From NCBI GenBank assembly GCA_965246885.1, contig OZ251992.1:1788906-1828906 (forward strand): a DNA stretch of 40,001 nucleotides, written 5' to 3'. Shown one piece after another: positions 23,395 through 38,897 of the stretch; the stretch's first letter is position 1, and each line of letters begins with the position of its first letter. Source of the DNA: Abditibacterium sp. Lineage in GTDB: Bacteria > Armatimonadota > Abditibacteriia > Abditibacteriales > Abditibacteriaceae. The notes below the pieces were generated by a model. That model had not been told where the DNA came from, ran no database searches, and worked only from the letters and a program-made list of their open reading frames with translations. The translations under genes and the position numbers were made by a program.

Positions 23395-24486
23395 ATGCAA
23401 TCCAACCAGATGCGCCGGGGCCTCGTTCCCGGCCTCGCTGCCCTTGCCCTTGTCGGAAGTGTCGCCCATGCGCAGGTCATCATGCCCGCGCACCTCACCG
23501 GAAAGCCCGACCCGCAGATGAAAGCGGTCTTGACTTCGCTCAAAGAGTTAGGTGCCAAGCCGCTTCACACCCTCAACTACAAGCAGGCCCGCCTTCAAGC
23601 GGGGCCGCCCGACGCCGTGAAGCGCACCTTGCAAAAGCAGGGCAAGCCGACGACGCCCGAAGTCGTGGACAGCGTGCGCGACGTGCGCATCAGCACGAGC
23701 CAAGGTCCGGTGACTGTCCGTTTGTATCGTCCGATGGGTTCGGGTAAAGCCAAACTGCCCGTTATCGTCTACTTTCACGGCGGCGGTTTCGTGATTGCGT
23801 CGGTGGCCGCTTACGACTCCTCGTGCCGCGCCTTGGCCAATGCGACGGGCGCCCTCGTTGCTGCCGTTGCTTACGACCTCGCGCCGGAACGCCGCTTGCC
23901 CGTCGCGCACGAGGAGTGCTACTCCGTCACGCAAGCGATGATTAATGGCGGCGCCGAGCAATACGGCGGCGATTCCAAGAAGGTCGCCGTCGCGGGCGAG
24001 TCGGCGGGTGGACAACTGGCCATTGACATGTCGTTCATGGCGCAAATGCGCGGCGGCAAAAAGCCGGTTTATGAGTTGCTCGTGTATCCGTTCATCAACG
24101 GCAAGACGATTTATCCCTCGCACCGCCAATTTAAGAAGCAAGCGCCGCTTTCGACGCCCGACATCCCTTGGTTTTTGGGCTATGCGCTTCCCAACAAAGC
24201 CCTTGCCAAGTCGCCGCTCGCGCAACCGCTTTACGCTCCGACGGCGCTCCTCAAAGGCTTGCCGCCGACGACCATCGTGGCGGCGGAACTCGACCCGCTC
24301 ATGAGCGAGGGTGTCTTATTTACCAAGAAACTCCAAGCGGCGGGTGTGCCGGTTCGTTACAAGCTGTATCCCGGCGTCACGCACGAGTTTTTCGGTATGG
24401 GCGCGGTGGTGGACAAAGCCAAAGACGCCGTTGCCTTTGGCGCGCAGGGGCTAAAAATGGGTTTTACGATGAAAATCAAGCCGTGA
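23395..24486 (+). CDS. Secreted alpha/beta-hydrolase, hormone-sensitive-lipase-like esterase family
   Basis: Signal-like N-terminus. The HGGG oxyanion motif is in VIVYFHGGGFV and the nucleophile elbow in GESAGGQLA. Start is ATG 23395 or 23410. Confidence 0.85.
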   Translation: MQSNQMRRGLVPGLAALALVGSVAHAQVIMPAHLTGKPDPQMKAVLTSLKELGAKPLHTLNYKQARLQAGPPDAVKRTLQKQGKPTTPEVVDSVRDVRISTSQGPVTVRLYRPMGSGKAKLPVIVYFHGGGFVIASVAAYDSSCRALANATGALVAAVAYDLAPERRLPVAHEECYSVTQAMINGGAEQYGGDSKKVAVAGESAGGQLAIDMSFMAQMRGGKKPVYELLVYPFINGKTIYPSHRQFKKQAPLSTPDIPWFLGYALPNKALAKSPLAQPLYAPTALLKGLPPTTIVAAELDPLMSEGVLFTKKLQAAGVPVRYKLYPGVTHEFFGMGAVVDKAKDAVAFGAQGLKMGFTMKIKP

Positions 24487-24672
24487 CAGACGCTGGTGAC
24501 TGAATGACACACGCCTGCCAGCGGGTGAGAGAGGCCGGTGACTGAGTGGCAGAGGCGTGGCGACCGTTGACAGACATGCGCCGGCCAGTGGCAGACCCCT
24601 GTCACCCGTTCCCCCATACCTGTCAACGGTCGCCACGCCTCTGCCACTCAGTCACCGGCCTCTCTCACTCGC
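24484..24672. repeat. 21-bp phased tandem repeat array 1 (9 units) containing a perfect 49-bp inverted repeat
   Basis: Units start TGACAGAC / TGACACAC / TGAGAGAG / TGGCAGAG / TGACAGAC / TGGCAGAC at exact 21-bp steps from 24484. Bases 24525-24573 are the exact reverse complement of 24620-24668. Confidence 0.9.
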
Positions 24673-33530: not shown

Positions 33531-34001
33531 CTAATCCTCCGGCACGACGGCCTCGTCTATGACGGACTCGCTCGCGGCGAAAAAGCCGATGCCGCGCGCC
33601 GCCAGCGCCGACGCAACCAACGCCAACAAGAGCAGATACCCCACGCGCAAGGTTTCCTGCCCAAACACGACAAGGGTGGCTTGGAGCACCTTGGCGACGT
33701 TGTTCGGGGCGTCCAAGACGCCCGTTCCCGGCGAGTCCTGAATCCGGTTGACCTGCATGTTGAGAAATCCGGGTTGCGAGAACTCTTTAAGCGCCGCCAG
33801 CGCCTGCCAGAAGACATAGAAGAGCAGGGCGACGCCGAGCGCGAAAATGGACAGCCCGACCCAGCGCGCGATGCGCCGCCAGCGCGAACCGGTGCGGCGG
33901 GCGAGGGCGCGTTCGCCTGCATAGGGGGAAGGGGAGTCCGCTTCGATGGCCCCAGAAGAGGGGGGCACGTCGCGTGCGGCGGCGACAAGTTTTTCGGACA
34001 T
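33531..34001 (-). CDS. Hypothetical membrane protein, co-oriented and abutting the glycosidase-like gene
   Basis: Two hydrophobic helices (WVGLSIFALGVALLFYVFW and VGYLLLLALVASALAA). The stop abuts the downstream ATG. Start is ATG 34001 or GTG 34049. Confidence 0.55.
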   Translation of the reverse strand: MSEKLVAAARDVPPSSGAIEADSPSPYAGERALARRTGSRWRRIARWVGLSIFALGVALLFYVFWQALAALKEFSQPGFLNMQVNRIQDSPGTGVLDAPNNVAKVLQATLVVFGQETLRVGYLLLLALVASALAARGIGFFAASESVIDEAVVPED

Positions 34002-34032
34002 ATTGGTTGGGAGCAAGCCGTCAAAGTTTAGC

Positions 34033-34158
34033 GGAGCGCCGTCCGTCACTCCGCGCCGGACGTCCCTCCCTTGCTGACAGACGTCTGTCGTCCATCCCCA
34101 GACGTCTGTCGGCCACTCCCAGACGTCCGTTTGTCCGTGACAGACGTCTCTCTTCGCG
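34033..34158. repeat. 21-bp phased tandem repeat array 2 (6 units) with palindromic CAGACGTCTG cores
   Basis: The units are ggagcgccgtccgtcactccg, cgccggacgtccctcccttgc, tgacagacgtctgtcgtccat, ccccagacgtctgtcggccac, tcccagacgtccgtttgtccg and tgacagacgtctctcttcgcg. Confidence 0.9.
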
Positions 34159-34209
34159 CTTTTTCATCAAGTCGAATGAAACGGCGCTAAACTTCGGGGA
34201 TAACAGATT

Positions 34210-36087
34210 ATGGCACAACGAATCCGGCAGCTGCCGCCCGATGTAGCGAACAAAATCGCGGCGGGCGAAGTGGTGGAGCGGCCCGCCAATGCCGTCAAGG
34301 AACTCATCGAGAACGCCCTCGACGCGGGCGCGCGCCGCATTTCCATTGACATTGAGGAGGGCGGCAAAAAGCTCATCCGCGTGCGCGACGACGGAAGCGG
34401 CATGAGCGCGCAAGATGCGGTTTTGTGCTTGCAACGCCACGCGACCAGCAAAATTCAAGAGGCCGACGACTTATGGCGCATCTCCACGCTTGGCTTCCGG
34501 GGCGAAGCGATGCCCAGTTTGGCGGCGGTGTCGCGCATGGAAATCACCACGCGCGAAGAAGGCGCCGAGTCGGGCACGCGTTTGGTCGTGGAAGCGGGCG
34601 AGGTCTTGGGCGTCGAAGAGATCGGCTGCGCTCCGGGAACCGAAATCACCGTGCGCGGCCTGTTCTTCAACACGCCCGCGCGCTTTAAATTCCTCAAATC
34701 GGATAGCGCCGAAGCCGCGCGCATTTCCGAGATGGTCGGGCACCTCGCGCTCGCGTATCCGCATGTCGCGTTCGTGCTCAAGCACAATGGCAACGAGAGC
34801 TTGCGCGTCGAAGCCGGAGGCGATGCCTTCAACGCCCTTGTGTCAGTGTGGGGCCGCGACACGGCGCGCGCCATGATGCCCATTTCGACGAGCGAGGAGT
34901 TCCCCAACATGAAAGTCACCGGCTTCGCGGGCCGCCCGCAGTTCACGCGCGCCAATCGCAAGGGGCAGTTAGTATTCGTCAACGGGCGCGCCGTGACCAG
35001 CCGCGCTCTCCAGCACGCGTTTGGTGCCGCCTACGAAGGGCTAATTCACGGGCGCGACCGCTATCCGGTCGGGCTTATCTTTTTGCACGTCGCGCCGGGA
35101 AGCGTGGATGTCAACGTGCACCCCGCCAAGTCGGAGGTGCGCTTTGCCCGCGAGGGAGAAGCGCACCACGCGCTGCGCGTCGCTATCCGCGATACCCTTG
35201 TCGGGGCGCAATTAGCGCCCAATTGGAACCTCGAAGGCGAGCGCGACGGCGGCTTGTACGCGCCCTTTGGCGGCCCCAAGTTCGAGCCAAGCGGAACAGA
35301 AGCCGCGCGCTTTGCCCCGGCGCCAACGCCCAACTACGCCCGCTTCTTGCCGCGCGCCGACGAGGAATTGTCGCGCCCGCTTACGCCCGCGCCGACGGAA
35401 GACGCGCACGAACGTTTCCGTCAGCACCTCAGCGACATCCGCGAAGGCAAGACCGGCTTTGACCGCGACCTGTTCCCCGACGAGGCGCCGCCGCGCTTGC
35501 AATTGCGCCCGCTCGCGCAGATTTCCCAGAACGCTTATATCCTTTGCGAGGGCGAGGACGGCTTATACATTGTCAACCAGCACCGCGCGCACGAGCGCAT
35601 CTTGGCCGACCGCGCCATCGCCAAGGCCGAACGCGAGCGCGTCGAGTCGCAGCGCCTGATGATCCCCTTCTCGGTCGAGTGCGGCCCGCGCGCCCTCGCT
35701 TCTGTCGAGGAGCACGGCGCGCTTCTGAGTGAGCTTGGTTTCGAGGTCGAGAGTTTCGGCGGCAACGCCCTGTTAGTGCGCGCTGTGCCGATGCTGGTCG
35801 CGCAAACGGACTACGAGCGCGCGTTCTCCGACTTGCTGGACGAACTGGTATCTGGCCACGCTGGTCGCAACTTGGAGGAGCGCCGCCGCGCGCTACTGAC
35901 CATGCTGAGTTGCAAGAACGCCATCAAAGCGGGCGACGCGCTCAATCAAGGGCAAATGCAGGGCTTAGTGGACGACTTGGTGGAACTGCCGAATCCGAGC
36001 ATCTGCCCGCACGGGCAACCGATACTGATTAAGATTTCGACCTACGAATTGCACAAGAAGTTCGAGCGCGAGTATGCGATGCGCTAA
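34210..36087 (+). CDS. mutL: DNA mismatch repair protein MutL
   Basis: IRQLPPDVANKIAAGEVVERPANAVKELIENALDAG...VRDDGSGM is the GHKL ATPase N-terminus. The C-terminal dimerisation region is present. Confidence 0.95.
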   Translation: MAQRIRQLPPDVANKIAAGEVVERPANAVKELIENALDAGARRISIDIEEGGKKLIRVRDDGSGMSAQDAVLCLQRHATSKIQEADDLWRISTLGFRGEAMPSLAAVSRMEITTREEGAESGTRLVVEAGEVLGVEEIGCAPGTEITVRGLFFNTPARFKFLKSDSAEAARISEMVGHLALAYPHVAFVLKHNGNESLRVEAGGDAFNALVSVWGRDTARAMMPISTSEEFPNMKVTGFAGRPQFTRANRKGQLVFVNGRAVTSRALQHAFGAAYEGLIHGRDRYPVGLIFLHVAPGSVDVNVHPAKSEVRFAREGEAHHALRVAIRDTLVGAQLAPNWNLEGERDGGLYAPFGGPKFEPSGTEAARFAPAPTPNYARFLPRADEELSRPLTPAPTEDAHERFRQHLSDIREGKTGFDRDLFPDEAPPRLQLRPLAQISQNAYILCEGEDGLYIVNQHRAHERILADRAIAKAERERVESQRLMIPFSVECGPRALASVEEHGALLSELGFEVESFGGNALLVRAVPMLVAQTDYERAFSDLLDELVSGHAGRNLEERRRALLTMLSCKNAIKAGDALNQGQMQGLVDDLVELPNPSICPHGQPILIKISTYELHKKFEREYAMR

Positions 36088-38771: not shown

Positions 38772-38897
38772 CTATTTTCCATTCCCACGTGCCTGCCGTC
38801 CATTCCCGCGCCTGTGTCACCCACTCCCGCATGTGTGTGACTCATTCCTACATGCTTGTCATTCATTGGCAGGGGCGCGTCAATGGACGACAGACGC
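38772..38897. repeat. 21-bp phased tandem repeat array 3 (6 units), upstream of the DUF1559 gene
   Basis: The units are ctattttccattcccacgtgc, ctgccgtccattcccgcgcct, gtgtcacccactcccgcatgt, gtgtgactcattcctacatgc, ttgtcattcattggcaggggc and gcgtcaatggacgacagacgc. Confidence 0.85.

Follow-up and report, generated by a model that had tools for sequence, protein, structure and literature searches.

The window analyzed here is a stretch of 40,001 nucleotides from Abditibacterium sp. (C1:1788906-1828906), taken from a genome of 3.55 Mb with 62.5% G+C that comprises two contigs, C1 and a 72-kb contig. mutL (34210-36087, plus strand, 625 aa) carries the Pfam families MutL_C, DNA_mis_repair, and HATPase_c_3 and has orthologues in all 12 congeners. 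Divergent from it lies the gene of a small predicted membrane protein without a Pfam family (33531-34003, minus strand). We prefer the ATG at 34003 as its start; its longest open reading frame begins at a GTG at 34049, i.e., within the first unit of the repeat array that separates the two genes. A homologue of the membrane-protein gene is the neighbor of mutL in two congeners (G005 and G006) and lies 2-4 kb off in two others (G010 and G012).

The array itself (34033-34158, no strand assigned) consists of six contiguous units with a period of 21 bp, each made of a 16-bp core block and a 5-nt spacer. The units are GGAGCGCCGTCCGTCActccg (34033-34053), which is degenerate (GCGCCGTC); CGCCGGACGTCCCTCCcttgc (34054-34074), with the one-mismatch core CGGACGTC from 34057; and then TGACAGACGTCTGTCGtccat (34075-34095), CCCCAGACGTCTGTCGgccac (34096-34116), TCCCAGACGTCCGTTTgtccg (34117-34137), and TGACAGACGTCTCTCTtcgcg (34138-34158), which hold an exact CAGACGTC from 34078, 34099, 34120, and 34141, respectively. 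By direct reading, four of the six units thus have an exact core, a fifth differs from it at one position, and the sixth is degenerate. The CAGACGTC octamer occurs seven times in the window against an expected 1.3, a count that none of 100 shuffles reached; TRF reports 34078-34127 as a repeat of period 21 with 89% matches, and the copies found in the array by a repeat search are spaced 21, 21, and 42 bp apart. The six contiguous phased units of the original prediction are confirmed by the direct reading, the TRF result, the repeat spacing, and the shuffles, and so is, by the repeat search, the perfect 14-bp palindrome GACAGACGTCTGTC (34076-34089, no strand), which forms the best unit core. This palindrome is, however, the exception among the units and not the rule. 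The block that had been noted after each core is indeed present, but we now read it as the spacer followed by the TCCCA-type left arm of the next unit. The predicted fold of 34024-34194 is strong (-75 kcal/mol, z = -7.2), and it consists mostly of core-core pairing plus the pairing of a flanking 10-bp inverted repeat that contains the TAAACT elements.

Putative promoters and sister arrays around mutL

The end of the array coincides exactly with the beginning of a conserved stretch of ~50 bp before the mutL ATG. We assign this stretch (TTTTTCATC...GAAACGGCGCTAAACT...ATG, 34159-34209, plus strand) as the mutL core promoter and leader; it is conserved in the four closest congeners, whose MutL proteins are 93-94% identical, and in one metagenome relative, and only TTTTTCAyC...GTGAAACGGCGCGTTAAACT...ATG is kept upstream of mutL in these genomes. 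A scan of the mutL promoter region for the sigma-70 consensus gave no match and no promoter call; it is therefore from conservation that we infer the assignment. Within this stretch lies the right arm, CGCTAAACTT (34185-34194, plus strand), of a perfect 10-bp inverted repeat; the arm holds the conserved TAAACT, which is -10-like and lies 16 nt upstream of the mutL ATG. The left arm, AAGTTTAGCG (34024-34033, minus strand), reads as CGCTAAACTT on the minus strand, lies 20 nt upstream of the ATG at 34003, and is probably the -10-like element of the divergent membrane-protein gene. Read in this way, the region would hold two divergent -10-like elements with the array between them. No array is present upstream of mutL in any of the 12 congeners or in the metagenome relative. 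Rfam matched only two tRNAs in the window.

There are two sister arrays in the window, and their kinship with the mutL array had been part of the original prediction. One of them (24484-24672, no strand, nine units) is clearly a member; it lies between convergent genes, begins at the upstream gene's stop codon, and contains a long inverted repeat that places it among the few true fold-backs (C1:1813389, z = 2.9). The other (38772-38897, no strand, six units of the TCCCGCryGTGTGTCA type, read by eye) matches in its phase and in its 16+5 layout, but its cores are degenerate, and it was detected neither by TRF nor by the weight-matrix screen described below.

A dispersed family of 21-bp phased arrays

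Contig C1 contains 266 copies of CAGACGTC. When all of them are aligned, their consensus is repeated +/-21 and +/-42 bp away, and in these neighboring units, which were not selected for their sequence, the core positions are 67-81% conserved versus 31-45% for the spacer. The consensus unit is TGACAGACGTCTGTCA followed by 5 nt. Only the 10-bp palindromic core CAGACGTCTG makes up the conserved part, and arms and spacers drift; the arms draw on a small vocabulary (TGACA, TCCCA, yGGCG, and CGCC), and the spacer is free. A position weight matrix (PWM) derived from the neighbor units gave 966 matches of at least 12 bits, compared with 29 on a reversed-sequence control. TRF on the whole genome returned 342 rows at period 21, 84 at 42, and 37 at 63, with 62 and 33 rows at the comparison periods of 18 and 24, respectively, and merging of the rows yielded 300 arrays that amount to 27.6 kb.

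We define a robust array as one with at least three units of at least 9 bits. There are 94 of these, including the mutL array (catalogued at C1:1822938), and together with about 100 other noncoding 21-bp arrays they bring the family to ~200 loci or ~0.8% of the genome, in a catalogue that is incomplete in that it missed the degenerate array at 38772. The sizes of the robust arrays peak at five to eight units with a median of 142 bp, and their distribution is not geometric. Other unit sequences also occur at the 21-bp period, e.g., GGAAGAATTAGGCGCGCCGA and CATGGGACGCGGGGAGGAAA; they grade into the CAGACGTC type, and at C1:1187028 sub-families are joined in register within one array.

Units are arranged head to tail at a strict 21-bp period, and in only ~10 of 90 arrays is one half inverted. 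Palindromy of the unit beyond its core was considered and rejected, as the outer arms are complementary at 3.04 of 7 positions versus 3.17 of 7 for random arm pairs; no complementarity of arms beyond random was seen across the spacer either, and the commonest type of unit has two different arms, e.g., TGACA...TGGGA. Permutation of unit order left only ~10 of 90 arrays with extra fold-back complementarity outside the cores. The A+T frequencies of the unit, inspected by eye, have no 10.5-bp harmonic of the kind found in the E. coli gyrase motif.

Of the 21 positions of a unit, 13.3 agree between adjacent units versus 10.9 between units from different arrays, and identical units make up 8% of adjacent pairs within arrays, with none between arrays in 20,000 draws. 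An all-against-all BLAST of the arrays found no near-identical pair, the best matches being 81-121 bp long at 82-88%. Units that are alike within arrays and the lack of near-identical arrays indicate that the arrays evolve in place, without recent movement as blocks. A search of the literature on Abditibacteriota repeats found no description of such repeats, and the family was not recognized among the elements in the literature searched, in agreement with the original prediction.

Placement relative to genes

Genes were called with a codon-usage ORF picker that takes the longest starts, which makes the intergenic and stop-codon figures given here approximate. On these calls, 40% of array bases fall inside ORFs versus 88% of the genome, i.e., an about eleven-fold enrichment outside ORFs. 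A genome scan had been proposed in which random placement would count against the prediction; the intergenic enrichment that we find is strong. Among the 94 robust arrays, 43 lie between tandem, 15 between divergent, and 13 between convergent genes, approximately in proportion to the space that each class offers; of the remainder, 18 are in the initial 30% of a called ORF and five are mid-ORF. The early-ORF arrays that we inspected, e.g., the one upstream of tgt, look like start-codon artefacts.

On the same approximate calls, 41 of the 94 robust arrays are within 30 nt of a stop codon versus 20.7+/-3.9 for random placement in gaps, and 14 overlap the stop codon. Most loci of the family directly follow a stop codon or lie between promoters. 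The adjacency to stop codons also suits a role at the RNA level, in the 3' UTR. No strand polarity was found; once the arrays are turned to the direction of the gene upstream, left-type and right-type arms occur equally often. The GC skew is too irregular for replichores to be defined. No common function is evident among the flanking genes of the other arrays inspected, and no recurrent neighboring gene was noticed in a nonsystematic look across arrays.

A few arrays are placed in frame within genes, and the one that we checked, in CheA, is certainly coding; it lies between the Hpt and dimerization domains and reads RETSAAPPPPSVAEPQTSVTEPQTSVAEPQTSAIAPPPS. In four congeners CheA is one open frame, and its linker at this position is unrelated. 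A unit of 21 bp corresponds to seven codons, and the translation of the CheA array, like that of arrays in other ORFs, consists of (Q/E)TS(A/V) heptads. The 72-kb contig has five TRF arrays of period 21, all of them inside ORF calls.

Relatives and distant genomes

A two-unit pattern with one mismatch allowed has 173 matches in this genome versus zero to two in each of 30 relatives, the 12 congeners included. In a 400-kb sample of the complete congener G012, six of 39 TRF rows are of period 21, about one-sixth of the density here. The present genome is half the size of those of its closest relatives. We compared the DNA at seven array sites with G010 and G012. At two of them (mutL and 24484), these congeners hold 2-4 kb of extra genes, a 640-aa gene in the case of 24484; two others are at synteny breaks; and the remaining three are small additions, two of which are clean (148 bp and 196 bp) and directly follow a stop codon. 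At the two clean sites, where the relatives are ~75% identical, neither a target-site duplication nor terminal inverted repeats were seen. The third addition is the degenerate array at 38772, where this genome is 240 bp longer than the corresponding gap in G010, although more DNA is present in G012. A proto-unit, GCGTCTGTCA, is found at an orthologous site in both G012 and G010.

An origin of the two window arrays as deletion scars is unsupported: at mutL the gene order is shared by G005 and G006, which are more distant, and only three congeners (G002, G010, and G012) have the extra gene of the 24484 site. Exact-protein look-ups for a strain-level comparison found nothing, the metagenome scan found one relative, which is without the array, and viral contigs gave no match.

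Among 185,579 species, each represented by one genome, the exact two-unit pattern occurs in only ten other stretches, three of which are full arrays with the same core and period. These are in a Dysgonamonadaceae MAG of the Bacteroidota (TTTTTTGCAGACGTCTGCGAA, 7.9 copies), a Phycisphaeraceae MAG of the Planctomycetota (GCGGCGCGCAGACGTCTGGGA, 7.3 copies), and an Armatimonadota MAG (5.4 copies by TRF, or ~6-7 units if a degenerate first unit is counted). In each of the three MAGs the core is found again at a second or third locus, next to different spacers; this speaks against chance and in favor of a core-reading factor that is conserved. The number of units is six to eight in four of the MAG arrays and 11 in a fifth; the further MAG arrays range from ~2 units, in Phycisphaeraceae and inside a longer dispersed repeat, up to 11.

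Regular spacing along the chromosome

The closest two of the 94 robust arrays are 6.8 kb apart. As a null we placed 94 points on the intergenic gaps of the genome, with gaps weighted either by count or by length, or with only those of at least 150 bp admitted; ~13 pairs closer than 6 kb are expected and none is observed (P<1/3000, as zero pairs was obtained in 0 of 3000 simulations). The same avoidance extends to arrays of other sequence: between the robust arrays and 101 noncoding 21-bp arrays with other units there are four cross pairs at 0.4-6 kb versus 28 expected, with an excess at 10-20 kb. For the 195 loci taken together, the nearest-neighbor distance is below 6 kb in 12 cases versus 52 expected and between 10 and 20 kb in 98 cases versus 50 expected, and the coefficient of variation of the spacing is 0.71 versus 0.95+/-0.07. 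As a control, 313 noncoding hairpin loci of the same genome follow the null, showing neither exclusion among themselves nor avoidance of the arrays.

The degenerate 38772 array is only 4.7 kb from the mutL array. Since the catalogue misses such degenerate arrays, the ~6-kb mutual exclusion may hold only for well-preserved ones. As to the cause of the spacing, functional spacing is the possibility toward which we lean, tentatively; an immunity-like rule of insertion seems rather unlikely, and a loss of nearby pairs more unlikely still, the rest of our expectation going to some other cause or to an effect of the incomplete catalogue.

Comparison with described repeat systems

REPs and BIMEs are species-specific extragenic palindromic units of high copy number that are regularly clustered (PMC2817692, PMC3333891). 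The present family is like them in its more than 100 copies, its species-specific and extragenic occurrence, and its clustering at regular internal spacing in mosaic arrays. It differs in that its units run head to tail at a strict 21 bp, whereas REP/BIME units alternate in orientation with variable linkers, and in that only the 10-bp core is conserved, with stems that show no covariation. We know of no described REP family whose members exclude each other along the chromosome. E. coli BIME-2 elements are strong, transcription-independent gyrase sites that are thought to aid genome organization, and gyrase leaves a footprint of 130 bp with helical periodicity (PMC6379681); in our arrays only the median length of 142 bp and the 21-bp phase are compatible with such a site.

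CGTC-tagged REPs, including the dRS3/NIME elements of Neisseria, have stems of 8 bp (8-9) that begin with A-T pairs and loops of 4-5 nt, lack a dedicated transposase, and on occasion form large clusters or lie within genes (Di Nocera et al. 2013, PMC3733652). Their CGTC is terminal and unpaired, it is followed by a stem-loop and a CCA tail, and the units form mostly head-to-head dimers (PMC3733652). In our units, by contrast, CGTC is central in the palindrome, there is no tail, the spacer is 1-5 nt, and the units are in tandem. The TCCCA-type unit ATTCCC-AGACGTCT-GGGAAT fits the dRS3 formula, ATTCCC-N8-GGGAAT; this resemblance concerns one arm variant only.

The RPEs of Rickettsia are single elements of 100-150 bp that are inserted in frame into protein-coding genes and translated, and the MIRUs of mycobacteria are dispersed intergenic tandem repeats at ~40 loci, 46-101 bp with a frame-keeping unit length and no palindromic core. 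Our family is like both in that its 21-bp units preserve the reading frame and a few arrays are in frame within genes, but RPEs are not phased arrays.

Palindromic or direct sites repeated at two helical turns, four to seven at a time, are also found in cooperative operator and iteron arrays on one face of the DNA: ARG boxes bound by ArgR are 18-bp palindromes at 21 bp center to center, R6K has seven 22-bp iterons, ParR of pSK41 has centromere repeats of 20 bp, and MetJ has its met-boxes. Such arrays number one or a few per replicon and lie beside the genes that they serve, whereas there are ~200 here without a partner gene. Iterons and centromere repeats were rejected on this ground, as the ~195 chromosomal loci are not one or few beside rep or par genes. 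The core AGACGTCT is identical to the consensus of the met-box in E. coli; the period of met-boxes is 8 bp, however, and a MetJ operator was rejected because the period here is 21 bp and the genome has no PF01340 match. CRISPR was rejected as well, the whole period being 21 bp with 5-nt spacers versus constant repeats of 24-40 bp that alternate with unique spacers of about equal length.

With respect to mobilizing enzymes, the genome has five Y1/RAYT-like (Y1_Tnp) genes, each flanked by its own long hairpin repeat, and no 21-bp units of at least 8 bits flank any of the five; a RAYT link of the 21-bp family was rejected because these genes carry other hairpins at their flanks. No rve-type transposase was found in the genome, and a Mu/Tn7-like origin was rejected for want of an rve domain. 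Nor do the arrays form a MITE class, with no near-identical copies, no gene bracketed by two arrays, no rve, and no target duplication at the two clean sites. The family's spread to ~200 loci has gone without a detectable transposase.

Discussion

We consider it probable that the mutL array is one copy of a lineage-specific, nonautonomous, dispersed family that is REP/BIME-like and acts as a docking platform for a protein, the partner being putative. The likeness has its limits, as the family lacks the features by which REPs and BIMEs are defined: its units do not flank a RAYT gene, they carry neither a GTAG nor a terminal CGTC tag, their stems are not maintained, and they do not alternate in orientation. 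A palindromic core with drifting arms, the strict two-turn phase, and the lack of polarity favor a protein platform at the DNA level over an RNA hairpin. The arrays would then offer a series of docking sites on the same face of the DNA to a dimeric or oligomeric sequence-specific protein, and the binder may be gyrase or another topoisomerase, as in E. coli BIME-2, or else a nucleoid-associated protein; by this analogy, gyrase or a nucleoid protein is a reasonable candidate. The original prediction had offered a dimeric regulator, a nucleoid-type protein, or intrinsically bent DNA; of these, a nucleoid-type protein on one face of the DNA fits the observations best. The ~6-kb exclusion and the modal spacing of 10-20 kb may stem from this platform role or from the way in which arrays are laid down, and the arrays themselves are likely to change in place by unit duplication and divergence rather than to move as whole blocks. 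At mutL, the array would sit between two divergent core promoters, with the conserved mutL-proximal 50 bp left untouched, and its effect on mutL would be incidental.

The strongest competing explanation, though in our judgment an unlikely one, is a REP-like element at the RNA level, i.e., hairpins in 3' UTRs that block 3' exonucleases, terminate transcription, or stall ribosomes, with the mutL copy as an inactive bystander. The many arrays that begin within 30 nt of a stop codon or overlap it speak for such a role, as does the strong computed fold of the mutL array, and Liang and Deutscher reportedly found that E. coli REPs no more than ~15 nt from the stop codon lower expression through ribosome stalling. 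Against it, no strand polarity is seen; arm complementarity is maintained neither within units nor across spacers, few true fold-backs exist, and for the 15 arrays between divergent genes transcription is not required. The 6-kb mutual exclusion is left unexplained as well. REPs do lie mostly downstream of ORFs (PMC3733652), in favor of this reading; closeness to stop codons, however, could be no more than a result of selection against the disruption of promoters.

Less likely again, we think, are neutral minisatellites, in which a seed motif is duplicated by slippage without any function and nearby arrays recombine and delete the DNA between them, thereby creating the spacing. The greater likeness of adjacent units and their 8% of identical pairs speak for this, as do the proto-unit at the orthologous site in G012 and G010 and the size of the genome, which is half that of its closest relatives. 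However, the core is kept at 70-80% while the spacers are near random, and the size distribution is peaked rather than geometric. Sub-families that are unrelated in sequence exclude each other as well, and deletion driven by homology should be weak between these; at the two window arrays a loss in this genome is unsupported by the gene order in G005 and G006 and by the extra 24484 gene of only three congeners.

A relic MITE, whose ends would be stacked transposase-binding sites comparable to those of Mu and Tn7 and whose exclusion zone would be fossil target immunity, is improbable. Mu and Tn7 exert target immunity over several kilobases, which the array exclusion resembles, the array size is narrow at five to eight units, and some arrays are clean insertions in collinear intergenic DNA. 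The genome, on the other hand, has no rve transposase and no gene between two arrays, the nearest pair being 6.8 kb apart; there are no near-identical arrays, neither of the two clean sites shows terminal inverted repeats or a target duplication, and the five Y1/RAYT genes are flanked by other hairpin repeats. Finally, a locus-specific operator, in which cooperative binding of a dimeric regulator to the six phased cores would control the divergent promoters of mutL and the membrane-protein gene, would suit an array of palindromic, helically phased cores that fills the space between these promoters, but it is highly improbable and largely refuted by the genome scan, as identical cores recur in ~94 arrays of a family dispersed over ~200 loci, in every intergenic class and inside some ORFs, the inspected flanking genes have no evident common function, and the 12 congeners and the metagenome relative have only the proximal promoter and no array.

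Returning to the docking-platform reading, we can extend it, as a speculative possibility, to a system wider than this genome. The arrays would be same-face platforms of ~140 bp for a widely conserved putative DNA-binding or topology protein that recognizes AGACGTCT. In this species they would have been amplified to a quasi-regular lattice whose members are no closer than 6 kb and most often 10-20 kb from each other, and the lattice would divide the chromosome into structural or supercoiling units; the low-copy arrays of ~5-11 units with this core and period in Bacteroidota, Planctomycetota, and Armatimonadota would be the ancestral form of one undescribed system.

If the family is only selfish DNA, it is one more REP-like family of a single lineage, with nothing unusual about the mutL locus. 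Several observations point beyond this: the strict two-turn phase is common to sequence-unrelated sub-families, even when these are joined in register; only the 10-bp palindromic core is kept, and distant phyla have it too, at the same period and in arrays of similar size; and the arrays exclude each other and prefer a spacing of 10-20 kb, unlike the ordinary hairpins of the same genome. The family also supplies in-frame heptad inserts to disordered protein linkers and in this way contributes a little to protein variation. When a dispersed repeat is regularly spaced, this points to a constraint at the scale of the chromosome, be it domain anchors, sites for gyrase or a nucleoid protein, or an immunity-like rule of insertion. 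Such constraints are rarely visible from sequence alone, and the spacing described here gives a handle on nucleoid organization in a little-studied phylum.

Arrays within genes and independent repeat systems

Arrays of the 21-bp family lie in frame within four long ORFs of the source genome (G000, main contig C1), at G000:C1:723295-723420 (cheA), 342560-342706, 499845-500012, and 581740-581828, where they read as (Q/E)TS(A/V)-type heptads within Pro/Ala/Thr-rich linkers; among these four ORFs, our orthologue comparison covers CheA only. Five Y1/RAYT-like transposase genes were also found (L007-L011; G000:C1 near 1930539, 10567, 1335203, 567387, and 1381523), and each of the five has its own long hairpin (REPIN-like) repeat on both sides, such as GGCGACTGAAGTCGCGGCAAC... 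or GGGGATATAAAATCCCCGGCATCCGG.... Because a separate hairpin repeat brackets each gene, G000 contains several independent RAYT/repeat systems in addition to the 21-bp family. Along the whole contig, cumulative GC skew, with its minimum near 0.48 Mb and its maximum near 3.44 Mb, does not resolve into two clear arms and is too irregular to place the origin and terminus.

Arrays in other phyla

In the Phycisphaeraceae MAG, the 21-bp array with the AGACGTCT core is nested in a longer dispersed repeat (L057:1777-2037, L052:1-80, and L081:150-200) whose copies have common flanks and differ in the number of units, i.e., seven, at least four, and two; this array is a VNTR inside a multi-copy element. 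The Dysgonamonadaceae MAG has two 9/27-bp tandem arrays of the TTAAGGACT type (L050:3394-3710) 0.7-1 kb from its 21-bp AGACGTCT array, and a further 21-bp array at L050:4748-4796. Tandem repeats crowd the intergenic region that holds the AGACGTCT array there.

Array sites in congeners

G000 has a genome of 3.55 Mb, compared with 4.8-8.0 Mb in the four congeners closest by MutL, and syntenic blocks are about 40% longer in two congeners, G010 and G012, than in G000. In the window's block, the two array sites hold most of this extra DNA. In G010 it includes a transposase gene (L063:2261-3439), which we take from its N-terminal motif to be ISAs1/H-repeat-like, beside a 640-aa gene; in G012 (L060:1867-4138) it includes a pair of paralogous genes, each encoding about 360 aa, with 'SPDGKTLAEARSNGQIFLWP' ends in common.

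The mutL array of G000 is flanked by a 10-bp perfect inverted repeat (window 34024-34033 and 34185-34194, AAGTTTAGCG and CGCTAAACTT), and each arm contains TAAACT. Through these arms, each divergent gene has a TAAACT element 16-25 nt upstream of its start codon, so the pair probably represents twin -10-like promoter elements. In G012, separate repeats of 21-bp period (GAGTTTTGAGAATGGGATGAG; GGTTTTCAATCATTTCAAGGC) are located directly upstream of the mutL promoter (L060:431-601), matching the position of the G000 array; the cores are unrelated, and only a CTnAnTCCCA-like stretch is in common. Arrays of the 21-bp type may be old at the mutL-upstream site, with quick turnover.
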